NCBI RefSeq assembly: GCF_000155895.1
Contig: NZ_DS995298.1
Coordinates: 480,001-512,000 of the forward strand
Length of the DNA stretch: 32,000 nt
Source: Candidatus Pelagibacter sp. HTCC7211
GTDB lineage: Bacteria; Pseudomonadota; Alphaproteobacteria; Pelagibacterales; Pelagibacteraceae
Direction of reading: 5' to 3'
Each line of letters begins with the position of its first letter. Positions within the stretch are counted from its first letter, which is position 1. Positions 6,850-21,913 of the stretch are shown piece after piece. The position numbers were made by a program, and so were the translations under genes. The notes under the pieces were generated by a model that saw nothing but the letters and a program-made list of their open reading frames with translations, searched no databases and was not told the origin of the DNA.

Positions 6850-6924
6850 GGGCCGTTAGCTCAATAGTAGAGTACTGCATTGACATTGCAGGGGTAGTTG
6901 GAGCGTAACCAACACGGCCCACCA
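6850..6924 (+). tRNA. tRNA-Val (anticodon GAC) with non-canonical D- and T-loops
   Basis: Hand-folded 75-nt cloverleaf. Acceptor gggccgt/acggccc has 7 perfect bp. D stem is gctc/gagt. Anticodon stem ctgca/tgcag with loop ttGACat. T stem gttgg/ccaac. Discriminator A and encoded CCA. The T-loop is agcgtaa rather than ttcgaat-like, and the D-loop aatagta lacks the GG pair. Confidence 0.7.
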
Positions 6925-6984: not shown

Positions 6985-7024
6985 GGGCCTGTAGCTCAGT
7001 TGGTTAGAGCAGTACACTCATAAT
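6985..7024 (+). repeat. Truncated 5' half of tRNA(CAU); left copy of the island direct repeat (attL core)
   Basis: gggcctgtagctcagttggttagagcagtacactcataat is identical over 40/40 nt to 11121-11160. The match starts exactly at tRNA +1 and ends at the 3' edge of the anticodon loop. The sequence then diverges (ttacga here, gtattg in the intact gene). Confidence 0.9.
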
Positions 7025-7097
7025 TTACGACTCAAAAAAATATCTTAAATTAGTATTTAAAATCAACCTCCATTAGAGGATTTGTTTTTCTATAAAA

Positions 7098-7129
7098 ATT
7101 TACCAACTATTTACCAACGAATGCAATTA
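7098..7129 (+). repeat. Left sub-terminal repeat block: two ATTTACCAAC copies 11 bp apart, plus a shared 21-mer
   Basis: atttaccaac at 7098-7107 and 7109-7118. The 21-mer atttaccaacgaatgcaatta (7109-7129) is identical to 11017-11037. The block starts 73 bp after the left tRNA repeat. Confidence 0.6.
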
Positions 7130-7188
7130 TCCACACAATTTAAAGGTTTTACATTTTGGTTTTTTTTATGCGAGATGTATAAGAGATT

Positions 7189-8217
7189 ATGCTTTCAGTT
7201 AACGATTTTTTTTCAGGTTGTGGTGGTCTCTCACAAGGATTTAAGGAGGCAGGATTTAAAATTCAAGTTGCTGTGGATAAAGAAGAAGCATTTTTAAAAA
7301 CTTTTTCACATAATTTTAAAGATTCTCAAACCAAAAATTTAGATTTGGGTGATAGCAAAACTCTTAACGATATTCCTAAATCAGATATTATTATTGCCGG
7401 TCCGCCTTGCCAAGGATTTTCAATTACTGGGCCAAGGAATATTGATGATCCAAGAAATAAATTATATTTATCAGTTTTTGAAACTTTAAAATTAACAAAT
7501 CCAAAAGCTTTTGTAGTTGAGAATGTGAGGGGTTTAAAAACCATGTGGGGAGGAAATGTTTTTAAGGAGATAATTAAAAAATTTGAAAGTGCAGGATATA
7601 TAGTTACTGAAAGTTTATTAAATTCAGCTGATTATGGAGTTCCGCAAATTAGACATAGAGTGTTTATTGTAGGTATAAAAAAAGAACTTAATAAAAAATT
7701 TGAATTTCCTAAACCAGAATTTGATAAAGATGATTATATCACATGTGGTGAGGCTATAGGTAATCTACCAAGTCTTGAGAATGGAGAATTAAAAAGTAAT
7801 GATTATAACGAAAAACCAACAACAAACTATCAAATGTATGTAATGGATAGTAATAAAATTTATAATCATGAAGCTACATTGCACAAACAATTTGTAAAAG
7901 ACACAATAGCTTTAGTCCCAGAAGGTGGTAATTATAAAGATCTACCAAAAGGAGTAGGCGAAAGTAGAAAGTTTAATGAGGCGTGGACCAGATATCATAG
8001 TAAAAAACCCTCAAGAACAATAGATACAGGTCACAGAAATCATTTTCATTACAAATGGAATAGAGTCCCAACAATCAGAGAAAATGCTAGACTCCAATCC
8101 TTTAAGGATAGTTTTGAATTTTTAGGAACAAAAACTTCTCAAAATGTTCAGGTTGGAAATGCCGTGCCACCTTTATTGGCATTTAAAATTGCAAAAGAAC
8201 TTAAGAAATTTCTTTAA
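7189..8217 (+). CDS. DNA (cytosine-5)-methyltransferase, first of two
   Basis: 342-aa ORF with the ordered C5-MTase motifs: I FFSGCGGLSQGF, IV GPPCQGFS, VI ENVRGL, VIII QIRHRVFIVG, IX RENARLQSFKDSFEF, X GNAVPP. Confidence 0.93.
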   Translation: MLSVNDFFSGCGGLSQGFKEAGFKIQVAVDKEEAFLKTFSHNFKDSQTKNLDLGDSKTLNDIPKSDIIIAGPPCQGFSITGPRNIDDPRNKLYLSVFETLKLTNPKAFVVENVRGLKTMWGGNVFKEIIKKFESAGYIVTESLLNSADYGVPQIRHRVFIVGIKKELNKKFEFPKPEFDKDDYITCGEAIGNLPSLENGELKSNDYNEKPTTNYQMYVMDSNKIYNHEATLHKQFVKDTIALVPEGGNYKDLPKGVGESRKFNEAWTRYHSKKPSRTIDTGHRNHFHYKWNRVPTIRENARLQSFKDSFEFLGTKTSQNVQVGNAVPPLLAFKIAKELKKFL

Positions 8218-9359
8218 TGAGTATTAAATTTATAGATTTATTTTCAGGATGCGGTGGTTTAACAGAGGCTTTTTTAAACAATAAAAAATTTTCTCCAATA
8301 AAAATTATTGATAATGATAAATTTTGTTACGACACTACAATTCATAGACTTAAAAAACTTAAGTTTAAAAATCCTGAAAAAATTGCGCAACTAAAGGATA
8401 TTTCAAGCAATAAAACAATTAATGATTTCAAAAACATTAAGTCTGATATTGTGATTGGAGGGCCTCCATGTCAGGCTTATTCAGTTGCAGGCAGAATTAG
8501 AGATAAGCATGGTATGAAAAAAGATTATAGAAATTACCTTTTTGAATCATTTCTCAAGATTATTAATTACAGCCAACCGAAGTTCTTTGTAATGGAGAAT
8601 GTTCCAGGAATGCTGAGCGCAAAACCAGGAAATATCAAAGTTACAATTAGAATTAAAAAAGAAACTAATAAAATCAAATATTATATCCCTGAAAATTTAT
8701 CTGAATGTATATTTGATTTATCTAAATACGGCGTACCTCAGAAAAGGAAAAGAGTGATTATATTTGGGGTAAATAAAAAGTTAAAAAACTATAAATCAAT
8801 ATCAAAGAAATTTTACGAAAAATTAAGATCCCAAGAATTAAAAAAAATAATTACTGTAAAACAAGCTATTGGAGATTTGGATAAATTTTATCCTTTAAAC
8901 AAAATTATAAAGATTAAAGGAAGAAAATTTTCCCACAAATCAAATTCAAAAAAACCAGATCATTCCCCAAGATTTCATAATGAGAGAGATATAAAGATTT
9001 TTAAACTTTTAGCTGAAGATATAGAGAAAAAGAAATTCAAGTATAAAACGGTAAAAGAATTACAAAAACTTTATACAAAAATTGTTGGAAAAAAATCTAA
9101 TATTCATAAATATTATGTGCTTAGAAAAGATGAGCCTAGTAATCTTATACCTTCACATTTATATAAAGATGGCTTGAGACATATTCATTATGACTCTAAA
9201 CAAGCAAGATCAATTACTGTTAGAGAAGCTGCTAGACTTCAATCTTTCCCAGATAATTTTGAATTTATTGGACCAATGACTGAGCAATACAAAATGATCG
9301 GAAACGCAGTTCCACCAAATTTTTCAAAACATTTGTTGAAAACAATTCTAAAATTATAA
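8217..9359 (+). CDS. DNA (cytosine-5)-methyltransferase, second of two
   Basis: 380-aa ORF: I LFSGCGGLTEAF, IV GGPPCQAYS, VI ENVPGM, VIII PQKRKRVIIFG, IX REAARLQSFPDNFEF, X GNAVPP. Its variable (target-recognition) region is longer than and different from the first methyltransferase. Its start overlaps the upstream stop (TAATG, 8215-8219). Confidence 0.93.
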   Translation: MSIKFIDLFSGCGGLTEAFLNNKKFSPIKIIDNDKFCYDTTIHRLKKLKFKNPEKIAQLKDISSNKTINDFKNIKSDIVIGGPPCQAYSVAGRIRDKHGMKKDYRNYLFESFLKIINYSQPKFFVMENVPGMLSAKPGNIKVTIRIKKETNKIKYYIPENLSECIFDLSKYGVPQKRKRVIIFGVNKKLKNYKSISKKFYEKLRSQELKKIITVKQAIGDLDKFYPLNKIIKIKGRKFSHKSNSKKPDHSPRFHNERDIKIFKLLAEDIEKKKFKYKTVKELQKLYTKIVGKKSNIHKYYVLRKDEPSNLIPSHLYKDGLRHIHYDSKQARSITVREAARLQSFPDNFEFIGPMTEQYKMIGNAVPPNFSKHLLKTILKL

Positions 9360-9368
9360 TTAATTATT

Positions 9369-10322
9369 TTAATCGTTTCTTAGTGGCCGTAATCTTCCAA
9401 AAATATTTTCTCTATGATATCGGATATAATCAAGCGAAGGTTTTATATTATTATCAACTGGGAGAGAAATTAATTGATTATCAAATTGTTTAAGAGAACT
9501 ATCAATTAGTTTTTCATGAACTTTAATCTTATAGTTATCATTTATTGTAAAATATCCTCTGTCAAAAGCATGGTGAAGGTCTAGATTTAATAAAATACCA
9601 TTATCTAATCTGTGAGGACCATTATGAGGATTTAAAACAGGTTTTATGTGTGCAGCTTGGAGATTTGTATAATGTGAATAGTTGATCGATGAACCGGAAA
9701 TAGCACATTTTAAATTATACAGCCTTCTTATAAGTTTTTTAAATTCATCTGGAGTATGAGTATTTTCAACAGGGTTACCTATTCTAGGATTTATTCTATT
9801 AATAGTTCTTTCTGAAACAATTGTTCTAATTGTATTAATTGATCTTTGATCAATAAAATTCATCTCATTTGTCCACCAATGTGCCCCCCTTCCTTTTTGA
9901 TTATCTGGTAAAGAACCTACTAAATCATCAATTATATTATACTCATTATCCGCTGGATTAAATCTGAACATCCTGAACAAATCTTCTCCATTTGATTCAA
10001 ATTTTAAAATGACTAAATAATCATCTTTGTTAAAAAAACTATTTAGGGGATCAATATTTTCATTTAGGTATAACCTTAAGTCCTTACCTCTATGTGCACT
10101 TCCATTGTGCCAAACATATTCACAATAAACTAAAATATTATTTGCATTATTTACACAACCAACAGATACAGATGGCTCAACATCATTCTCATTAAAATTT
10201 GGAAAAAAATTAGTTGCTCTTTGTAATTCCTTTGAGATCAGAATATATCTTCCTGCCTCTCTAACTCTCCCACCTCTATAACCCAGTTCTTGGGCGTTTA
10301 ATTTTCTGATATAGAATTTCAT
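9369..10322 (-). CDS. Putative restriction endonuclease: N-terminal EcoRII-N-like (B3-type) DNA-binding domain fused to a C-terminal HNH nuclease
   Basis: 317-aa ORF. The C-terminal part, C206-AISG...LQAAH225IKP...DN241GILLNLDLH250HAFDRGYFTI, fits the HNH_2-type signature. The N-terminal part (KFYIRKLNAQELG, FFPNF...EPSVSV, WHNGSAHRGK) parallels remembered EcoRII N-domain segments (FVYIKRLSANDTG, LFPSI...NPSVFL, YYNSRAHFGK). It is convergent with the second methyltransferase, with 9 bp between the stops. Confidence 0.78.
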   Translation of the reverse strand: MKFYIRKLNAQELGYRGGRVREAGRYILISKELQRATNFFPNFNENDVEPSVSVGCVNNANNILVYCEYVWHNGSAHRGKDLRLYLNENIDPLNSFFNKDDYLVILKFESNGEDLFRMFRFNPADNEYNIIDDLVGSLPDNQKGRGAHWWTNEMNFIDQRSINTIRTIVSERTINRINPRIGNPVENTHTPDEFKKLIRRLYNLKCAISGSSINYSHYTNLQAAHIKPVLNPHNGPHRLDNGILLNLDLHHAFDRGYFTINDNYKIKVHEKLIDSSLKQFDNQLISLPVDNNIKPSLDYIRYHRENIFGRLRPLRND

Positions 10323-10333
10323 AAAAAAATTAT

Positions 10334-10672
10334 TTATAGATCTTCATTATGCCAGGTAAAAAGATCTGCTTCAAAAGGAATATTTCTAAATTTTAATAAA
10401 GCCTTATATTTTTCAAGTCTGTCCTCTTTTTTAGCATTTTTTAAGTATGTAAGGATTTGATCATATGTTAGTCCTTTTAAACTATTTTTTTTCACATCCA
10501 CATATTCTTCATATTCCATACCTGCTATTGCGTAGCCTTTATTGGGATCTATGTGTTCAGCATAACTAATTGTGTCTTCAGTTTCTTTAAGGATATCGTA
10601 CCAGTGAGCAACCTGATTTTTATTATCAAAAAGATAATCTTTTCTGTAATCAAACAGTTCTAACTGCTGCAT
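10334..10672 (-). CDS. Hypothetical 112-aa acidic protein, apparently co-transcribed upstream of the nuclease
   Basis: ORF ends 11 nt upstream of the nuclease start on the same strand. I recognise no motif: no helix-turn-helix, no Vsr motifs. Coding status rests on length, position and the lack of competing ORFs. Confidence 0.55.
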   Translation of the reverse strand: MQQLELFDYRKDYLFDNKNQVAHWYDILKETEDTISYAEHIDPNKGYAIAGMEYEEYVDVKKNSLKGLTYDQILTYLKNAKKEDRLEKYKALLKFRNIPFEADLFTWHNEDL

Positions 10673-10819
10673 ATTTTTGAAGTATTTAAATTGAGAAAAT
10701 TAACTAACAATTAATAATATAATTTTAAATTATGTCTTAAGTATGATACTATTTATTAGTCCTGATTTAGAACATAACTCTACTTGCTAGGACTATAAAC
10801 AAAACGCTAAAGGAGAAAC

Positions 10820-11050
10820 ATGAAAATAATAATACAATCAGTAAAAAACTTTTTTAAATCAAAAGAAAAAAAAGGTTTAAAACCGATATTTTTTGAAAGT
10901 ATTGGAGATCAAAACACACCAAGAGATGAAAGGCGAAAGAATTTGATAAATATTTTAGAAAAAAATGGATTTAAAATTAAAAACAAAAGATAAGGTCTTG
11001 AATTTACTTACCAACGGATTTACCAACGAATGCAATTACAAAAGGAAATA
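10820..11050 (+). CDS. Candidate small basic protein (76 aa), hand-called and absent from the supplied ORF track
   Basis: ATG at 10820 preceded by aaAGGAGaaac, a strong Shine-Dalgarno for this genome. Hand translation: MKIIIQSVKNFFKSKEKKGLKPIFFESIGDQNTPRDERRKNLINILEKNGFKIKTKDKVLNLLTNGFTNECNYKRK, stop at 11048. Its 3' end runs through the right repeat block. Its absence from the track is unexplained, so the coordinates need machine re-checking. Confidence 0.3.
11001..11037 (+). repeat. Right sub-terminal repeat block: TTACCAAC plus ATTTACCAAC, and the shared 21-mer
   Basis: ttaccaac at 11007-11014 and atttaccaac at 11017-11026. The 21-mer 11017-11037 is identical to 7109-7129. The block ends 83 bp before the intact tRNA. 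Confidence 0.6.
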
Positions 11051-11120
11051 AATAGAAACAAAACAAAAACATTGGAGCTTGATTAACTTTTAATTTGTTG
11101 TAAAACCTAGACTTATTGAA

Positions 11121-11197
11121 GGGCCTGTAGCTCAGTTGGTTAGAGCAGTACACTCATAATGTATTGGTCCCAGGTTCGAGTCCTGGCGGGCCCACCA
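11121..11197 (+). tRNA. tRNA with CAU anticodon, intact; acceptor-stem features favour tRNA-Ile2 (lysidine) over elongator tRNA-Met
   Basis: 77-nt cloverleaf. Acceptor gggcctg/cgggccc. D arm gctc-agttggtta-gagc. Anticodon stem gtaca/tgtat with loop ctCATaa. T arm ccagg-ttcgagt-cctgg. ACCA end. C4-G69 and C5-G68 match the acceptor pairs known as TilS determinants in E. coli tRNA-Ile2. It is not an initiator, because 1-72 is paired. Confidence 0.92.
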
Positions 11198-11803: not shown

Positions 11804-12610
11804 TTATTGGCTGTCTATTTCTTCCCAGTCTTCTTCATTTTTATAAATAACCTCAATATTTCCTCTATTTTGATTTTCAATTTTATTCTCTCTATCTTGT
11901 AGATATAAACTTTTAACTGAAGCATAAAAATCTACTGAATTTTTTTCAAGATTATCTAAGGACTCAATATTATTTGCTCTAAACTCAATACCACTTAGAG
12001 CTTTCGATGTCAAAAAAACACCCTCATTTAAAAACTCGTTGTTACCATGTATTGAAGCATTATACCAAGGATCTCCTCCCAATACATTAGCAAAAGATCC
12101 GGCTGAGTCTCTTATTGTTGAAGGACCTAAAACTGGAAGAACTAAATAACAACCTGGGCCTACACCCCAAGCGCCTAAAGTTTGACCATAATCCTCTTTA
12201 ACATATTTTGGAAAGCCTATTTTATTTGCCACATCGATAATACCTAATAGTCCAACCGTTGTATTCACAATTAATCTTCCTGTATTAATCGCTGCAGTTT
12301 TTATATCACCTTGCAAAACGTTGTTAGGTATAGTGATTAAAGTAGACAAGTTTTTTACTGCATTACCCGTACCCTTTTGAATTGGATCTGGTAATTTCTT
12401 ATAACCCTTTGCTATTGGTGAAATAATAGCTCTATCTAAACCTTGGTTAAATGAAAAGGTAGCTCTATTAAGTTTTTCAAAACAATCTTTTATTTTTTTG
12501 GGTTTTTCATTTTCTGATAATACCAATTCACCACTAGAGCCTGCAATTGCATCAAAAGATAATAAGAAAATTGAAATTAAAGTTATTACAAATTTTTTGT
12601 ACATGAGCAT
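11804..12610 (-). CDS. mlaA: MlaA/VacJ-family outer-membrane lipoprotein
   Basis: 268-aa ORF with a signal sequence and VacJ-family blocks (FNQGLDRAIISPIAKGYKKLP, NNVLQGD, NTTVGLLGIIDVA, DYGQTLGAWGVGPGCYLVLPVLGPSTIRD). Confidence 0.85.
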   Translation of the reverse strand: MLMYKKFVITLISIFLLSFDAIAGSSGELVLSENEKPKKIKDCFEKLNRATFSFNQGLDRAIISPIAKGYKKLPDPIQKGTGNAVKNLSTLITIPNNVLQGDIKTAAINTGRLIVNTTVGLLGIIDVANKIGFPKYVKEDYGQTLGAWGVGPGCYLVLPVLGPSTIRDSAGSFANVLGGDPWYNASIHGNNEFLNEGVFLTSKALSGIEFRANNIESLDNLEKNSVDFYASVKSLYLQDRENKIENQNRGNIEVIYKNEEDWEEIDSQ

Positions 12611-12693
12611 CTATATATTATAAAAAATTAGTTTATTAAATAGCATTTAAATTCAAAAAATGTCGATAAAGTGTTTATAAATAGGTAAAATTT

Positions 12694-13440
12694 ATGCCAA
12701 AATTAAAAATGAATACAAACCTGAATTATTCTCCAAATTTTGATGTAAAAAAAAGAAGGGTAAAAGAAGTAAAATTTATTATTTTTCATTACACTGGGAT
12801 GAAAAAAGAAAATCAAGCTATCACTCGGTTAACTAATTCTAAATCAAAAGTTAGTAGCCATTACTTAATAAAAAATAATGGCGAAATATTAACTTTAGTC
12901 CCTGACTTATATGTTGCTTGGCATGCAGGAATTTCATCATGGAAAAACTATAAATCAATTAATAAATATTCAATAGGGATAGAAATTAGTAATCCTGGAC
13001 ATGAATATTCTTATAAAAAATTTTCAAAAGAACAAGTTAAATCGATTATAAAATTGAGCACTTATTTAATAAAAAAATATAATATTAAACCGAACTTTAT
13101 ATTAGGTCACTCTGACATTGCTCCAGATAGAAAAAAAGATCCAGGGGAAAAGTTTCCTTGGAAATATTTGTCAAAAAATAAAATTGGTCATTGGCATAAT
13201 TTGAATGAAAAAAAAATTTTTAAAAAAAGAAATTTAACAGAAGGTAAAAAAGAAAAAATTAAATTTATCAAAAATTTATATGAGATAGGATACCCAAAGA
13301 ATATTTTGTTTAATAAATACAAATATTCAAAATTATTAACTACTGCATTTCAGAGAAGGTTTAGGCAAGAACTTGTAAACGGTATAATTGACCAAGAATG
13401 TCTTGTTATAAGCAATAACCTAGCAAAAAACCTGAAATAA
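12694..13440 (+). CDS. N-acetylmuramoyl-L-alanine amidase (Amidase_2, AmpD/AmiD type)
   Basis: 248-aa ORF with motifs IIFHYTG, SSHYLI, AWHAG, SIGIEISNPG and GHSDIAPDRKKDPGEKFPW, which include the usual zinc and catalytic residues. Confidence 0.85.
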   Translation: MPKLKMNTNLNYSPNFDVKKRRVKEVKFIIFHYTGMKKENQAITRLTNSKSKVSSHYLIKNNGEILTLVPDLYVAWHAGISSWKNYKSINKYSIGIEISNPGHEYSYKKFSKEQVKSIIKLSTYLIKKYNIKPNFILGHSDIAPDRKKDPGEKFPWKYLSKNKIGHWHNLNEKKIFKKRNLTEGKKEKIKFIKNLYEIGYPKNILFNKYKYSKLLTTAFQRRFRQELVNGIIDQECLVISNNLAKNLK

Positions 13441-13480
13441 AATTTCTTGATATTTTACAGCTTAGTTGTAAATTCTTTTT

Positions 13481-13834
13481 GCCAGATAAACGACTTATCG
13501 CTTTAAGTTGTTAAAGAGGAAAGTCCGGGCTCTACAAGGAAACAGTGCCAGGTAATACCTGGCGGGGGCAACCCCAGGGATAGTGCCACAGAAAATAAAC
13601 CGCCATAACATGGCAAGGGTGAAAAGGTGTGGTAAGAGCACACCGGTTCTATTGGTAACAATGAACGCTGGAAAACCCCACTGGGAGCAAGACTAAGTAG
13701 AGATGACATTGTTGAAAAACTAAAAGCCTTCCTTGGCTAGTCATCAGGGTTAGTTGCTTGAGCTTAAGAGTGATCTTGAGTCTAGACAAATGATAAGTTT
13801 AAATGACAGAACCCGGCTTATAGTTTATCTGGCA
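13481..13834 (+). ncRNA. rnpB: RNase P RNA, bacterial type A
   Basis: Conserved P4 halves GAGGAAAGTCCGGGCTC (about 13515) and ACAGAACCCGGCTTA (about 13806). P1 pairing gccagataaac (13481-13491) with gtttatctggc (13823-13833). P2 gacttatc/gataagt. The 68-aa minus-strand ORF at 13503-13709 lies inside it and is spurious. Confidence 0.93.
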
Positions 13835-14024
13835 TTTCATAATTAAAAATAAAAATATATTAGAGAAACAATTATTCTTTTAGCTATAAGTATAGATTTA
13901 AATGGATCATTAATAATTATTCTTATTATCTAATTAACAACATAAATAAAGAACTCATCTATTACTAATCATTATATCAAATTTTGTCTCATAAATTGAC
14001 TTTTATTAAGCATAGAATCAGCAA

Positions 14025-14053
14025 TTGACTATCATTTAAAATACCCATATATT
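14025..14053 (+). promoter_or_regulatory. Candidate sigma70 promoter of the dcw operon (Pmra equivalent)
   Basis: TTGACT (14025-14030), 17-bp spacer, TATATT (14048-14053), 42 nt upstream of the mraZ ATG. Confidence 0.5.
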
Positions 14054-14067
14054 CCCATATATTCCCA
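14043..14067 (-). promoter_or_regulatory. Putative MraZ operator: three TGGGN boxes with 5-nt spacers
   Basis: The minus strand reads TGGGA-atata-TGGGA-atata-TGGGT. On the plus strand this is accca 14043-47, tccca 14053-57 and tccca 14063-67. Exact 10-bp periodicity, overlapping the -10 element and the transcription start region. Confidence 0.5.
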
Positions 14068-14095
14068 ATTATGGAATTTTTAAAATTAAAAATAT

Positions 14096-14563
14096 ATGTT
14101 TTTATCAACTTACGAGAACAAGTTAGACAAAAAGGGAAGAGTATCTGTGCCTGCTAGTTTTAGGTCTCATTTGTCAAATTTAGGTTACAACGGCGTAATT
14201 TGTTATCCATCTTTTAATAATTCTTCAATAGAAGCATGTTCTCAAGATAGAATAGAAAAAATTTCCTCAGTAATAGATTCTTTAAATCCTTTTGAAGAAA
14301 AAAGAGATTATTTCGCAACTTCAATATTAGCAGAAAGTACTAATTTACAATTTGATAGTGAGGGAAGAATTTCACTTTCATCAAAATTATTAAAACATGC
14401 AAAAATTAAAAATAGCATGTTATTTGTTGGTCAAGGTCAAACCTTTCAAATTTGGGAACCAACGGCGTTTGAAAAATTTAAGGTAAATGCAAGAAAAAAA
14501 GCAAATTTAAACCGAGCTAACCTTAAATGGGAAAAACATTTTAATAACAACGAGGGGAAATAA
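14096..14563 (+). CDS. mraZ: Transcriptional regulator MraZ
   Basis: 155-aa ORF with the duplicated MraZ/SpoVT-AbrB motif (LDKKGRVSVPASFR and FDSEGRISLSSKL). First gene of the dcw cluster. Confidence 0.9.
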   Translation: MFLSTYENKLDKKGRVSVPASFRSHLSNLGYNGVICYPSFNNSSIEACSQDRIEKISSVIDSLNPFEEKRDYFATSILAESTNLQFDSEGRISLSSKLLKHAKIKNSMLFVGQGQTFQIWEPTAFEKFKVNARKKANLNRANLKWEKHFNNNEGK

Positions 14564-14566
14564 AAG

Positions 14567-16045
14567 ATGACAATTAACTTTAAAACACCAGAAATAAAAG
14601 AGTTACAGCCACGATTACTAGTTATGGGAGTAGGTGGAGCAGGCGGAAATGCTGTTAATGAAATGATTGAAAATAATTTACAAGGTGTAGAATTTATTGC
14701 GGTCAATACTGATGCACAAGATTTAAAGTTAAGTAAATGTAAAACAAGAATTCAAATTGGTTTAAATTTAACCAAAGGTTTAGGAGCTGGCGCTAAACTT
14801 GATATAGGACAAGCCGCAGCAGATGAGTCTTTAAATGAAATTATAAATACTTTACAAGGTGCAAACATGGTTTTTATTGCAGCTGGAATGGGGGGTGGCA
14901 CAGGGACTGGTGCTGCACATGTGATTGCTAGAGCTGCTAAAGAATTAAATATCTTAACTGTAGGTGTTGTGACTCTTCCATTTCTATATGAAGGCCCCTC
15001 AAGAATGCGAAGAGCACAACAAGGTTTGGAGGAATTAAGAAAACATGTTGATACGATTATAGTTATTCCAAATCAAAATTTGTTTAAAATTGCAAATGAG
15101 CAAACAACATTTGAAGATTCATTCAATCTTTCTAATAATGTTTTAATGCATGGAGTTCAAAGTATTACTGATTTGATGGTAAGACCAGGGTTAATTAATC
15201 TTGATTTTGCTGATGTAGAAACTGTAATGGCATCAATGGGCAAAGCAATGATGGGAACAGGAGAAGCCGAAGGCGAGGGTAGAGCGCTTCAAGCAGCAGA
15301 GATGGCTGTCAGCAATCCATTGATTGATGATTATACTTTAAAAGGTGCTAAAGGATTATTAGTTAATATTACAGGTGGAAAAGATCTTAAACTCTTTGAG
15401 GTAGATGAAGCAGTAAATAAGGTAAGAGCAGAGGTAGACCCAGAAGCGGAATTAATTATTGGCGCAATCACAGACTCAGAACTTGATGGAAAGATGAGAG
15501 TTTCAATTGTTGCAACATCACTGGATGGACAACAACCAGAGACAAAATCAGTAATAAATATGGTTCATCGTATCCAAAATAGAAATCCAGGTTATTCAGA
15601 CTTCTCTCATTTAGGAACGTCTGCATCTTTTAATTTTTCTAATACGGCCTCTAGTCCAATTTCACATGGTGCAAATGCATTGAAACTTGAGAATGAAATT
15701 GTTCATGAGCAAACTAATGACAGTAATCATTCAAGTATTGTTAATGAAGAAATTATGACTAACTCAAACCAAGTTTCAGAGAATGTGGTAGAGGATAGTT
15801 CTATAAATGAAATGGAAAAATCATTTACTCAAGAGGCTACTGAAACATCTCAAGAAAATACAGAAACTGAAAGTATTGAAGAGGATGTATCAAATGACCT
15901 AAAAGAATTTGGCGTAGACTCAGACTCTCCTGATTTATTCAGTTCAGAAAGCGAACATTCTACCGCAGAAGATTTACTATCATCAAATGAAGAAGAGGAT
16001 GATGATCTTGAAATACCAGCATTCCTAAGAAGACAAAAGAATTAA
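14567..16045 (+). CDS. ftsZ: Cell division GTPase FtsZ
   Basis: 492-aa ORF: [11 protein letters not shown], tubulin signature [16 protein letters not shown], a long acidic linker, and the conserved C-terminal peptide [12 protein letters not shown]. Starts 3 nt after the mraZ stop. Confidence 0.97.
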
Positions 16046-16063
16046 TGGTCTTCAAAGTAATAA

Positions 16064-17074
16064 ATGGAAGCCACCATAGTATCGGAATTACAAAAGCATT
16101 ACCCGGTACTGCTAAAAGAAATTATTAGCGTTTTTTCCCCTCAACATGGTGGCACATTTATTGATTGTACTTTTGGCCAAGGAGGATATTCCAAAAAAAT
16201 TCTTGATTTTGAGAATACAAGCATAATTGCACTTGATAGAGACGTAGAGAGCGAAAAAATTGCAAATAAATTTAAAGAAAATTTTGAAGATAGATTTATT
16301 TTTAAAAATATTAAATTCAGTCAATTAAACAATCTAAAACTTAAAAATGAAAATATAAGAGGAGTAATTTTTGATCTTGGTTATTCTTACACTCAAATAA
16401 AAGATCCACTAAAAGGACTTTCATTCGAAGCAGATGGTAAATTAAATATGCAGTTGGGTTTAAACAGCTATTCTGCTGAAGATGCAATCAATAAACTAGA
16501 TGAAAAAGAATTAGAAAAGATTTTTAAATTTTTTGGTGATGAAAAGGAGGGAAAATATATTGCGAGAAATATTATAAAAGAGAGATTAAAAAATAAGATT
16601 GATACCAGGGCTTTAGTTGAAATTATTGATAAATCAAAAAAAAGAAAAAACTTTAAGGTTCATAATGCAACGAAAGTTTTTCAGGCTCTTAGAATTTTTG
16701 TGAATAAAGAAATAAGTGAGTTAATTTATGGACTTATTAATGCAACAAAAGTTTTAAAGAAAGGTGGCATTTTAGGAGTGGTTACATTTCATTCATTAGA
16801 GGACAAAATAGTAAAATATTTTTTTAAAAGTCTTTCAGAAAATAAAAGTATTTCAAGATATAGCCCAGTTACAGAACAATCCGAGACTCTTTTCAACTTA
16901 ATACAAAAAAAACCAATTCTACCTTCTGATGAGGAGGTAAGTGAAAATCCACCATCCAGATCTGCTAAATTTAGATATGTAATAAAAAAATCAGATTTTT
17001 ATAACTTTGATACTGACGTAGAGAACCAATTTAGAAATTTAATCGAAATTGAAAATTATGGAGATAAATTGTGA
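16064..17074 (+). CDS. rsmH: 16S rRNA (cytosine1402-N4)-methyltransferase
   Basis: 336-aa ORF: [45 protein letters not shown]. Confidence 0.93.
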
Positions 17075-19069: not shown

Positions 19070-21913
19070 ATGCTTCTTGGAAAATATTTTCATAACATAA
19101 ATAAAGATTATAAAAATTTTTATTTTTCAGGAATTTCATTTGATACAAAAAATATAAAAAAAAATAATATCTTTTTTGCAATTAAGGGGAATAAATTTGA
19201 TGGAAATAATTTTATTCCAGATGCAATAAACAAAGGGTCTAAAATTATTGTAACTGAAAAAAAAGTAAAAAGTGTACAAAATGGAATTTTATATATTCAT
19301 ACAAATAATGTAAGAAAATTATTGGCTGAAACTGCATTTAAAATTTATAATAAAAAACCAAAAAATTTAATTGCAGTTACTGGTACAAATGGAAAATCCT
19401 CAATTGCTAATTTTTATTTTCAAATATTAAAATTGAATAATAAAAAAGTTGCCTCAATAGGTACTTTAGGAGTTAAATCAAAAAATATTAATTTGAATTT
19501 ATCTAATACCACAATTGATCCAATCAAATTAGCAAAAATATTGAGTAAGTTAAAAAGTCATAAAATAGAAAATGTAATTATGGAAGCTTCAAGCCATGGT
19601 TTAAAGCAAAATAGATTAGATGGTTTAAAGTTTAATTCTGGTATATTTACAAATTTATCTCAAGATCATTTAGATTATCACAAAAATTTAAAAAATTACT
19701 TAAATGCAAAACTCTATTTATTTGAAAATTTAATTAAAAAAAAAGGTAATTTAATAACAGATCAATTAATACCTGAATTTAAAAAAATAAAAAAAATTAC
19801 AATTAATAAGAGATTAAAATTATATGCACTTAATGATAAGAAAAATAATTTACAAGTCATCTCTCATAGTTTTAAAGGTGAGGCTCAATCTTTTAAAATT
19901 AAATTAAACAATTCAATACAGAATATAAATTTAAATTTAATTGGAAAAATACAATTAAAGAATGTTTTGATGGCAATAATTGCAGCAAAAAATAGTAATA
20001 TTGGATTAAATAAAATATTAAATAAAATTTATAAATTGAAACCAGTCGAAGGAAGATTTGAAAAAATTGGTAAGATTAAAAATCATTCTAAAGTAATTCT
20101 TGATTATGCTCACACTCCTGATGCTTTAAAAACATGTCTTTTAAATCTTAGAGAGCAATTTCCAGCAAAAAAAATCATAGTCTTGTTTGGCTGTGGAGGA
20201 AATAGAGATCAGAATAAAAGATCAAAAATGGGAAAAATTGCGAGTTATTTCTCAGATAAGATTATCCTCACAAATGATAATCCCAGATTAGAAAATCCTC
20301 AAAAAATAAGAAGAGATATAAAAAAAGGAATTAAAAAAAAGAAAATTATTGAAATATCAGACAGAGCAATGGCAATAACACGAGCTATTCATGATTTAAA
20401 TTCAGGTGATATTTTGCTGGTAGCAGGAAAAGGTCATGAGAAAACCCAAGATATTGGAAGTAAGAAAATTTTCTTTTCAGATAAAAAAGTAATCCTGAGT
20501 GCAATTAAAAACAAAAATATTAATTTATCAAATAATTTAAAAATAAATGTGGTTAAAGAGAGTGGTAAAATTAAAAGATTATCTCCCTTAATATCTTTAA
20601 AAAAAGCTAGAATTAATTCTCAGGAGGTAACCAAAAATGATATTTTTTTTGCTATTAAAGGAAAAAAAAATGATGGGAATAAATTTGTTGCCCAGTCTTT
20701 CAAGAGAAAAGCTTCATTAGCTGTAGTAAATAAGATTCAAAATAAATTAAATCATAGTCGACAGATCAAAGTAAAAAATACTTTAAAGTTCTTAACAAAT
20801 GTTTCAAAAATTTTTAGAAAAAGTATTGATACAAACATAATAGCAATTACAGGCAGCTGTGGCAAAACTACACTTAAAGAATTGTTAGGTAACACATTAA
20901 ATAAAATTTCGAAAGTAAGTATTTCCCCAAAATCATACAATAATAAGTTTGGAGTTCCATTAAGTCTTTTTAATATAAATCAAAAAGACGAATTTGGAAT
21001 TCTAGAGGTTGGGATGGATAAAAAGGGTGAAATTGATTATTTATCAAAAATTATAGAACCAGATGTTGGTGTAATAACAAATATAAATTATGCACATGCA
21101 AAAAATTTTAAGAATATTAAACAAATTGCTTTAGCAAAATCTGAAATTATTGATAATATAAGGCTTTATGGTTTTATTGTATTGAATGCAGATGATAGTT
21201 TTTTTAAACTACATTACAATATTGCTAAAAAAAAAAATATTAAAGTAATTTCTTTTGGTATAAAAAATCACAAAGCAGATATTAAATTAATTAATATAAA
21301 GCCATTTAGAAAAAAATTTAGAATTAACATTAGTTTAAATAATAAAAGAAAATATTTTTTACTATCTAATGATTTTCAAAATAATATATACAATATTTTA
21401 TCTGCTCTAGCAGTTATTAGTATTTATAAAAATATATTTAAATTAGATAAAAATATTTTTTACGATTTTAAAATACCTGGAGGACGAGGAGATCATTCGG
21501 TAATTAAATTTAATAATAAAAAAATAAATTTAATTGACCAAAGTTATAATTCAAATCCTCTATCACTAAAATCAGCAATAAAAAATTATGATAAGATCAA
21601 TTTAAAAAAATCAAATAAATACATGTTAATTGGTGATATGTTAGAGCTTGGCAGTCATTCTAGAAGACTTCATCGATCTGTTGCTCCAATAATAAATAAA
21701 TCCAATATAGACAAGGTATATGTTAAAGGGAAAATGGCCTCAATAATATTTAAGGATATTTCAAAAGCAAAAAAAGGTAGAATTTTATTGAACAAATCAC
21801 AAATTATTGAATTGATTAGAAAAGATTTAAATAATAATGATTATTTAATGATTAAAGCCTCACTTGCGACAGGATTTAACGACATAGTCAAAGATCTGAA
21901 AGGACTACGTTAA
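19070..21913 (+). CDS. murE-murF: Fused MurE-MurF (UDP-MurNAc-tripeptide synthetase fused to UDP-MurNAc-pentapeptide synthetase)
   Basis: Single 947-aa ORF. The MurE half (about aa 1-482) has GTNGKSS, DNPR (mDAP type) and AGKGHE. The MurF half (about aa 488-947) has ARINSQEV..DIFFAIKG..DGNKF, a second P-loop TGSCGKTT, and GDMLELG. No stop or frameshift near the junction at about nt 20516-20530. Confidence 0.9.
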   Translation: MLLGKYFHNINKDYKNFYFSGISFDTKNIKKNNIFFAIKGNKFDGNNFIPDAINKGSKIIVTEKKVKSVQNGILYIHTNNVRKLLAETAFKIYNKKPKNLIAVTGTNGKSSIANFYFQILKLNNKKVASIGTLGVKSKNINLNLSNTTIDPIKLAKILSKLKSHKIENVIMEASSHGLKQNRLDGLKFNSGIFTNLSQDHLDYHKNLKNYLNAKLYLFENLIKKKGNLITDQLIPEFKKIKKITINKRLKLYALNDKKNNLQVISHSFKGEAQSFKIKLNNSIQNINLNLIGKIQLKNVLMAIIAAKNSNIGLNKILNKIYKLKPVEGRFEKIGKIKNHSKVILDYAHTPDALKTCLLNLREQFPAKKIIVLFGCGGNRDQNKRSKMGKIASYFSDKIILTNDNPRLENPQKIRRDIKKGIKKKKIIEISDRAMAITRAIHDLNSGDILLVAGKGHEKTQDIGSKKIFFSDKKVILSAIKNKNINLSNNLKINVVKESGKIKRLSPLISLKKARINSQEVTKNDIFFAIKGKKNDGNKFVAQSFKRKASLAVVNKIQNKLNHSRQIKVKNTLKFLTNVSKIFRKSIDTNIIAITGSCGKTTLKELLGNTLNKISKVSISPKSYNNKFGVPLSLFNINQKDEFGILEVGMDKKGEIDYLSKIIEPDVGVITNINYAHAKNFKNIKQIALAKSEIIDNIRLYGFIVLNADDSFFKLHYNIAKKKNIKVISFGIKNHKADIKLINIKPFRKKFRINISLNNKRKYFLLSNDFQNNIYNILSALAVISIYKNIFKLDKNIFYDFKIPGGRGDHSVIKFNNKKINLIDQSYNSNPLSLKSAIKNYDKINLKKSNKYMLIGDMLELGSHSRRLHRSVAPIINKSNIDKVYVKGKMASIIFKDISKAKKGRILLNKSQIIELIRKDLNNNDYLMIKASLATGFNDIVKDLKGLR

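Follow-up and report, generated by a model that had tools for sequence, protein, structure and literature searches.

A probable Type II restriction-modification cargo with a predicted B3-HNH_2 nuclease on an integrase-less tRNA-Met island of SAR11

Introduction

What do two different 5-methylcytosine (m5C) DNA methyltransferases, facing a modular nuclease, do in the streamlined genome of a SAR11 bacterium, and how did they come to lie beside a tRNA gene? This question is raised by a locus of Candidatus Pelagibacter sp. HTCC7211, which lies in a stretch of 32,000 nucleotides (nt) of contig NZ_DS995298.1 (positions 480,001 to 512,000); this whole stretch was analysed here and is called the window. 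A first-pass annotation had described the locus as a complete restriction-modification (R-M) cassette on a tRNA island, and as worth attention because defence systems are generally held to be scarce in streamlined marine oligotrophs. The module is indeed intact, but its rarity was overstated, given that a 2026 preprint covering 135 Pelagibacter genomes reports a share of 5.8% for R-M genes among singleton island genes.

As set out below, we favour with moderate confidence the reading that the window carries a Type II R-M cargo with Type IIS-like action, in which an autonomous B3-HNH_2 nuclease is paired with two methyltransferases, on a tRNA-Met island that has no integrase gene.

Results

Two distinct methyltransferases and a convergent nuclease

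The two methyltransferases, M1 and M2, match PF00145 over their full length with 250 and 198 bits (cut-off 22), and both exceed the cut-off of TIGR00675. Motifs I (FSGCGG), IV (PPCQ, including the PCQ cysteine), VI (ENV), VIII (QxRxR), IX (RExARLQSF) and X (GNAVP) follow in order in each of them, while the two proteins are only ~30% identical to each other and have variable regions of 139 aa and 156 aa between motifs VIII and IX. They are thus two complete and distinct C5 methyltransferases, as first annotated, and their coupling by TAATG at 8215-8219, where the stop codon of M1 overlaps the start codon of M2, was also verified. The same holds for the earlier coordinates of all four open reading frames (ORFs), namely M1, M2, the nuclease gene and a 112-aa ORF called orf112 here (Table 1).

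The nuclease gene is convergent with M2, the stop codons being 9 nt apart. Its product of 317 aa matches HNH_2 (PF13391) at aa 206-261 with an E value of 4.9e-13 and 49.2 bits (cut-off 21). In an alignment of 22 full-length homologues, H225, N241, D248 and H250 are invariant, as are E12, L13, G14, R83, Y85 and N87 of the N-terminal domain. The window nuclease is intact and keeps every invariant catalytic residue, and it is 92-98% conserved in two other loci (L106 and L125). The family is rare, with 22 full-length clusters among 5.8 billion proteins, and M1-type methyltransferases are far commoner (>6,500 matches at E<=1e-60).

No recognition site was obtained from the methyltransferases. The search with M1 returned thousands of matches labelled "DNA cytosine methyltransferase" with no site named, and PDB matches of the methyltransferases were confined to the catalytic core and gave no specificity. 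Comparison of 27.8 kb of host DNA with 179 kb from relatives that do not have the system gave no depleted k-mer that survived multiple testing.

Table 1. Features of the tRNA-Met island and its left flank, in window coordinates
Feature	Coordinates	Strand	Evidence or remark
tRNA-Val(GAC)	6850..6924	+	conserved chromosomal flank; ARAGORN
Displaced tRNA-Met 5′ half (left att core), 43 nt	6985..7027	+	ancestral tRNA-Met position, 60 nt after tRNA-Val
Left arm of frame	7028..7129	+	conserved in islands with other cargos (L098, L099, L152)
M1, m5C DNA methyltransferase, 342 aa	7189..8217	+	PF00145, E 4e-74
M2, second m5C DNA methyltransferase, 380 aa	8217..9359	+	PF00145, E 2.5e-58
Nuclease gene	9369..10322	-	
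Nuclease C-terminal domain, aa ~190-317	9372..9755	-	HNH_2 beta-beta-alpha-metal nuclease
Nuclease N-terminal domain, aa 1 to ~150	9873..10322	-	B3-like DNA-binding pseudobarrel, predicted sequence reader
orf112, 112 aa	10334..10672	-	conserved frame gene directly upstream of cargo
Candidate SAM-II-like riboswitch aptamer	10758..10815	+	Rfam RF00521, sub-threshold
orf57, small lysine-rich frame ORF, 57 aa	10820..10993	+	downstream of candidate riboswitch
Right arm of frame	10994..11120	+	conserved in L098, L101, L106 and L124
Intact tRNA-Met(CAT), right att core	11121..11197	+	ARAGORN, Rfam, repeat, synteny; mlaC directly next

Predicted fold of the nuclease

The AlphaFold2 (AF2) model of the nuclease, with a predicted local distance difference test (pLDDT) score of 86.4 and a predicted template modelling (pTM) score of 0.78, has two domains, between which aa 160-190 form a linker of lower confidence. 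A B3 fold was judged by a seven-stranded open barrel with two helices, as in solved B3 domains. Foldseek against the PDB matched the N-terminal ~125-140 residues to B3 pseudobarrels (target TM 0.53-0.73, probability >=0.98, E 2.5e-4 to 3e-2), among them the DNA-bound B3 domain of UbaLAI (5o63), which was the best match, and the B3 domains of plant ARF, VAL1, FUS3 and NGA1; the structures matched were 5o63, 6j9a, 5yzy, 6j9b and 5os9. The N-terminal domain is, in the predicted structure only, a B3-like DNA-binding pseudobarrel. No sequence similarity was detected when this domain was compared by hhalign with RE_NgoFVII-type (RE_NgoFVII_C) proteins (probability 0.4%, not significant).

For the C-terminus, Foldseek returned the HNH domains of TagI and VcaM4I, and PDB sequence matches (VcaM4I, 6yex; TagI, 6ghs) were found for the HNH-containing C-terminal third only. 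A match to the phosphorothioate-dependent family PT-DNA_restrict of NCBIfam was likewise restricted to the HNH part (62 bits against a cut-off of 180). The modular build given in the first-pass annotation, a DNA-binding domain with a separate HNH domain, is therefore supported by AF2 and Foldseek alike, at the level of predicted structure.

Linkage of the nuclease with both methyltransferases

The linkage to METHYLTRANSFERASES is strict: every context of a nuclease homologue that was read, in ~10 diverged lineages, has an M1 orthologue followed directly by an M2 orthologue (L001, L003, L004, L087, L088, L171-176, L179-180 and L187-192). Identities to the window in these triads are 49-62% for M1, 45-68% for M2 and 25-59% for the nuclease; the loci span 27-46% GC, and in some of them the nuclease gene converges on the methyltransferase genes, in others it points the same way. 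L093 matches the window at ~90% DNA identity over M1/M2 and over orf112, but has between them a nuclease of the family with only 33% identity. The strict linkage and this nuclease-only replacement indicate a functional R-M triad. Thus, a genuine and intact R-M module with two different m5C methyltransferases, as first proposed, is supported both by the intact motifs and by the conserved linkage of three genes.

Other features of these loci were also observed. In L093 (469-1485) the nuclease gene alone was exchanged, with breakpoints at the gene borders, and the M1-M2 pair (83-91% aa identity) occurs with three B3-HNH alleles of 33-38% identity to the window nuclease (L093:469-1485, L095:3845-4804 and L187:2675-3598). 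A Vsr gene accompanies the M1/M2 systems in L004 and L185. In the triad lineage of 45% GC, a protein of 416 aa that matches no family is encoded between M2 and the nuclease (L003:6675-7925 and L171:2861-4111, both on the minus strand), and this may be a further subunit.

The HNH domain of the nuclease is closest to those of TagI, VcaM4I and phosphorothioate-dependent HNH enzymes, and this resemblance raised the alternative of a Type IV, modification-dependent nuclease that merely adjoins two unrelated methyltransferases. TagI (SRA-HNH), VcaM4I (EVE-HNH) and ScoMcrA/EcoWI (SBD-HNH) share with the window enzyme a C-terminal HNH_2 domain and an N-terminal reader (PMC6765204, PMC7461809), but their readers bind modified bases or phosphorothioate, whereas that of the window nuclease is B3-like; Foldseek of the AF2 model against the PDB gave no SRA, EVE, PUA or SBD reader fold. 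Their genes also usually lie apart from methyltransferases, and PUA-HNH Type IV enzymes typically do not adjoin them (PMC6765204), whereas the window type is linked to the same two m5C methyltransferase families in all lineages examined; because of this linkage, we regard the nuclease as a true R-M partner. Furthermore, a nuclease cleaving 5-methylcytosine beside two m5C methyltransferases would risk self-restriction. The Type IV reading was rejected on the predicted fold and the conserved linkage, and we consider it very improbable.

The methyltransferase pair is also found with other nucleases. In Brachyspira and Methanocorpusculum, orthologues of M1 (59-60%) and M2 (47-49%) are followed by a 340-aa protein with RE_NgoFVII and RE_NgoFVII_C domains (PF09565/PF20731), so that one methyltransferase pair serves two unrelated nuclease domains. 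The loci with such a PLD and B3-like nuclease beside the M1/M2 orthologues are L182:5001-8321 and L185:2991-6349. Since the pair occurs with PLD-B3 nucleases, the window system is, in our reading, a nuclease-domain-swapped relative of the BfiI/CglI/NgoAVII group, with HNH_2 in place of PLD and the reader at the N-terminus. BfiI methyltransferases are N4-cytosine enzymes, unlike the m5C pair of the window. Members of this group combine a PLD nuclease with a B3-like domain; the targets of those characterised are short and asymmetric (GCCGC, ACTGGG), and cleavage occurs at a fixed distance from them (PMC4267653). BfiI and CglI/NgoAVII resemble the window system in that a B3-like pseudobarrel serves as the sequence reader of an R protein of two domains, in protection by cytosine methyltransferases, and in that a Z1 helicase-like partner accompanies some variants and not others, in their family as in that of the window nuclease (PMC4267653, PMC4267654, PMC3973309). 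In contrast to them, the window nuclease has an HNH_2 and no PLD domain, and its domain order is reversed with B3 at the N-terminus. CglI and NgoAVII each have one GCSGC methyltransferase, whereas the window system has two, and the island contains no gene for a DEAD-Z1 ATPase subunit like that of the CglI/NgoAVII-type systems.

Proposed mode of action and its rivals

In the Type IIS-like reading that we favour, the three-gene Type II R-M cargo occupies 7130-10327. The translationally coupled M1 and M2 would methylate cytosines in a short, asymmetric site, with one enzyme for each strand, the N-terminal B3-like pseudobarrel of the nuclease would read this site when unmethylated, and the C-terminal HNH_2 domain would cut nearby. 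The nuclease would probably act as a dimer or between two sites, like related reader-HNH enzymes, and its gene, 11 nt behind orf112, is probably transcribed together with orf112 from the frame of the island. One methyltransferase per strand of an asymmetric target, as already suggested in the first-pass annotation, is known from the Type IIS systems HgaI and FauI, which likewise have two different C5 methyltransferases and one nuclease, the architecture of the nuclease being different or unclear. In the AF2 model of the window nuclease recognition and cleavage are placed, as a prediction only, in separate domains, as in Type IIS enzymes, and its action is probably Type IIS-like and probably autonomous, with no motor partner. 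The SBD-, SRA- and EVE-fused HNH_2 relatives cut N4-N10 outside the bound site (PMC7461809), and a similar offset would therefore be expected for the window nuclease.

Several points weigh against this reading. All solved HNH_2 relatives of the nuclease (TagI, VcaM4I) are modification-dependent enzymes, and the B3 assignment of aa 1-190 has no sequence-profile backing (no Pfam and no PDB profile match). The N-terminal domain of McrB also reads 5-methylcytosine with a B3-like pseudobarrel fold, and two m5C methyltransferases can serve a symmetric degenerate site, ScrFI being the precedent. Finally, the R alleles of L095 and L187, with 36-38% identity to the window nuclease, come with a Z1/MzaC-like protein of ~1000 aa that is absent from the window, and therefore the window enzyme might lack a required motor subunit.

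The last point leads to the possibility of an incomplete, ATP-dependent system, in which the B3-HNH protein would be the R subunit of an enzyme that, like CglI, depends on a Z1 helicase-like subunit; since the Z1 gene is missing in the island, restriction would be off and the methyltransferases would effectively be orphans. Z1/MzaC-like cargos were seen in the SAR11 relatives L095, L097 and L187-192, where near-identical methyltransferases (M1 83%, M2 86-91%) and a B3-HNH allele of 36-43% identity stand beside a Z1/MzaC-like protein of 995-999 aa, and the R-proteins of CglI and NgoAVII are inactive without the Z1 ATPase (PMC4267653). Set against this, most triad lineages have no Z1 gene (L001, L004, L087, L088, L093, L125, L175, L176 and L179), the window allele is intact, catalytically complete and conserved in L106/L125, and the PLD-B3 family includes autonomous (BfiI) and motor-dependent (CglI) members alike. 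We consider an incomplete system unlikely. The Z1-domain protein itself was located at L095:784-3771 (minus strand) and L187:3712-6711 (plus strand); it matches MzaC of PADLOC with an E value of 3e-175 and recalls the DEAD-Z1 H subunit of CglI.

A symmetric or degenerate (pseudo)palindromic site, modified by both methyltransferases in a redundant or sub-site-specific manner and cut in or at the site rather than in a Type IIS-like manner, would be compatible with the ScrFI precedent and with the B3-like domains of UbaLAI and EcoRII, which read the pseudosymmetric CCWGG (PMC5766183), UbaLAI being the best structural match of the nuclease. It fits less well with the joint retention of both methyltransferase orthogroups in every lineage, in fixed order and with different variable regions, or with the fact that the same pair serves PLD-B3 nucleases, whose characterised members read asymmetric sites. 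This alternative appears improbable to us as well.

Insertion of the island in tRNA-Met

The island that carries this cargo has a length of 4,136 bp and is inserted in the anticodon-loop region of a tRNA-Met gene. Positions 6985-7027 and 11121-11163 form a direct repeat (42/43 identical), the copies being 4,136 nt apart, and the intact tRNA-Met is composed of an island-borne 5′ half and the chromosomal 3′ half. Five related SAR11 loci (L008, L009, L010, L015 and L016) have empty sites, with an intact tRNA-Met ~60 nt from tRNA-Val and then mlaC. From the fragment left at the ancestral position and the empty sites we conclude that the island inserted in tRNA-Met and supplied a new 5′ half; the tRNA island of the first-pass annotation is thus confirmed. 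The same tRNA-Met repeat bounds an 8.3-kb version of the island in L098, and the triad elsewhere is also bounded by tRNA sequences, with 3′ repeats of tRNA-Ala in L003 and of tRNA-Gln in L004. The tRNA-Met locus is a general insertion hotspot. In the SAR11 single-cell genomes L007 and L011-L014 (~11,900-16,300), different inserts of 0.9-2.4 kb were observed on either side of the same tRNA-Met, with a 3′-part tRNA-Met repeat in L007.

The left arm contains a tandem TTTACCAAC at 7099-7107 and 7110-7118, and the right arm a tandem (C/T)TTACCAAC at 11007-11015 and 11019-11027. The TTTACCAAC pairs are in the same orientation in both arms, 70-95 nt inside the tRNA-Met cores, and are kept where the arms otherwise diverge; exact copies in the window number 3 against 0.29 expected, and the 21 nt of 7109-7129 are repeated exactly at 11018-11038. 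These tandem pairs are candidate arm sites of a recombinase, but searches of the island, the window and the 8.3-kb island of L098 gave no match to an integrase or recombinase family. At 7067-7079 the conserved left arm has a GC-rich hairpin, CCTCTAATGGAGG, which is flanked on either side by T-rich runs and closely follows the displaced 5′ half of tRNA-Met; it may act as a bidirectional terminator. Promoter and terminator scans gave 20 matches versus 26 in shuffled sequences, the AT-rich DNA making such scans uninformative.

The integration geometry is the same as that of HTVC019P-type pelagiphages, which integrate in other SAR11 tRNA genes and restore the tRNA with an element-borne 5′ part (bioRxiv 10.1101/410191). 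Unlike these phages, the island showed no phage gene or integrase, its frame is only ~1 kb, and tRNA-Met is not among the reported pelagiphage sites. The island arms match phage records solely through tRNA-Met itself. A phage origin of the frame is not supported, as orf112 and a 20-mer arm repeat are absent from IMG/VR.

A conserved frame with exchangeable cargos

The first-pass annotation had counted the 112-aa ORF as an unknown partner within the cassette, and this part did not hold. Homology between differently loaded islands ends at the orf112 stop codon: in 82 further loci similarity to the window breaks off there and, at the opposite edge of the cargo, at the left-arm repeat, and the genes directly after orf112 belong to at least 23 unrelated families. 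Therefore, orf112 is a gene of the frame, and the true cargo is confined to the interval given above. The cargo nucleases include MvaI/BcnI, EcoRII-C, Bsp6I, SinI, TdeIII, MamI, Alw26I-type and MwoI-N, and other cargos are Type IIG enzymes, an AspBHI-like Type IV enzyme, N4/N6 methyltransferases and a helicase-nuclease; the first cargo gene often lies 0-16 nt from the orf112 stop codon or overlaps it. Loci with the frame and orf112 are the window, L005, L006 and L091-L170, and their cargos are mostly Type II nucleases with their methyltransferases.

orf112 has >960 homologue clusters with 82-94% identity, some with >1,000 members, and is confined to SAR11-like sequences; IMG/VR contained no homologue of it and none of the frame genes. 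Its role as a specific partner of the nuclease was rejected, given the 22 clusters of the latter and the variable cargo that follows. A core chromosomal gene was rejected as well, as ten SAR11 loci that share the rpoD-mlaC synteny, with empty or differently filled sites, lack orf112. Like controller (C) proteins, orf112 is small and abuts the nuclease gene directly upstream on the same strand, but unlike them it has no helix-turn-helix (HTH) and precedes unrelated nucleases at 82-96% identity. Searches of Pfam, NCBIfam and PADLOC gave no HTH match, and its AF2 model (pLDDT 87), a five-stranded beta-sheet with two helices, had no match in the PDB or BFVD; a C protein was therefore rejected.

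The orf112 of L101 is 93% identical to that of the window, whereas identity falls to 52% for the adjacent mlaC and to 46% for mlaA. The frame is thus better conserved than the neighbouring core genes, which indicates that it moves between SAR11 lineages. Defence hotspots on mobile elements are known from P4-like satellites, P2 prophage hotspots and tRNA-linked defence islands, and the P4/P2-type hotspots are similar in having a conserved mobile frame with hypervariable defence cargo at a single fixed position. Larger islands were observed to have a recurrent PDDEXK_1 nuclease and small ORFs (61 and 127-164 aa) upstream of orf112 or orf57 (for example L098:6126-6830, L006:5707-6423 and L004:2029-2829, with ~20 other loci), and the window island is a minimal version without them.

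A candidate riboswitch before orf57

The divergent genes orf112 and orf57 are separated by a spacer of 147 nt that is 90-96% conserved, and orf57 is 65-88% identical in 18 of the orf112 loci. The spacer contains a candidate for a SAM-II-like riboswitch (SAM, S-adenosylmethionine), which matched RF00521 with 19.8 bits, under the gathering score of 36, and an E value of 0.015 in a search of 201 nt. The candidate has a P1 stem of 6 bp (10758-10763 with 10789-10794), a loop-to-tail pseudoknot of 5 bp (10766-10770 with 10807-10811), a GAUUU loop, and the blocks UAAACAA and CGCUAAAG; the 3′ strand of the pseudoknot runs into the Shine-Dalgarno sequence AAGGAG of orf57 (10810-10815). The 15 distinct copies retain all 11 pairs and do not vary in the core blocks; they show only two wobble changes and no compensatory change, being too similar to one another for covariation to be seen. 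SAR11 is known to use SAM-II and SAM-V riboswitches (PMC2704228). We regard this candidate as a lead rather than a finding.

The frame of ~1 kb, with the tRNA-Met half-site, the TTTACCAAC arms, orf112, the putative riboswitch and orf57, could be a mobile docking platform that couples restriction to SAM and relies on a recombinase acting in trans, although we hold this to be rather doubtful. If it were so, any restriction gene behind orf112 would be expressed from the frame, and riboswitch control of orf57 and/or orf112 would tie restriction to the SAM level. Under starvation for reduced sulfur, a cell could in this way spare its own under-methylated DNA, and the frame would be an R-M safety module independent of its cargo. 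No SAM riboswitch linked with restriction-modification was found in the literature searched; if real, the candidate would be the first case, within that literature, in which SAM sensing is tied to the control of restriction.

Chromosomal surroundings

The window is otherwise SAR11 core genome. RpoD, encoded just upstream of the island, shares 94% identity with its counterpart in a Pelagibacteraceae single-cell genome, which upholds the SAR11-like assignment made at first. On this side lie carA, yqeY, dnaG and rpoD, and the tRNA-Val is 100% identical across the SAR11 loci L007-L015; on the other side are mlaC, mlaA, an amidase gene, the RNase P RNA and the dcw cluster. The RNase P RNA (13482-13836, plus strand, 288 bits) has the amidase gene on one side and mraZ on the other, an arrangement shared with strain HTCC1062. 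In the dcw cluster (14096-17074 and 19070-21913), ftsZ (14567-16045) is located between mraZ and rsmH/mraW and not at the cluster end, and an ORF of 947 aa resembles a murE-murF fusion with two Mur ligase middle domains.

Discussion

For restriction enzymology, the window system points to a rare nuclease family in which a B3-like reader is fused to HNH_2, to natural swapping of nuclease domains on a constant modification module, and possibly to a new Type IIS enzyme. The mobile frame that carries the system is a more novel element than the R-M system itself. Small and conserved, it exchanges more than 20 different restriction cargos. Through this exchange SAR11, which is the most abundant bacterium of the sea, varies its phage defence at a single tRNA-Met locus, which makes that locus a concrete and assayable place for pelagiphage-host dynamics.

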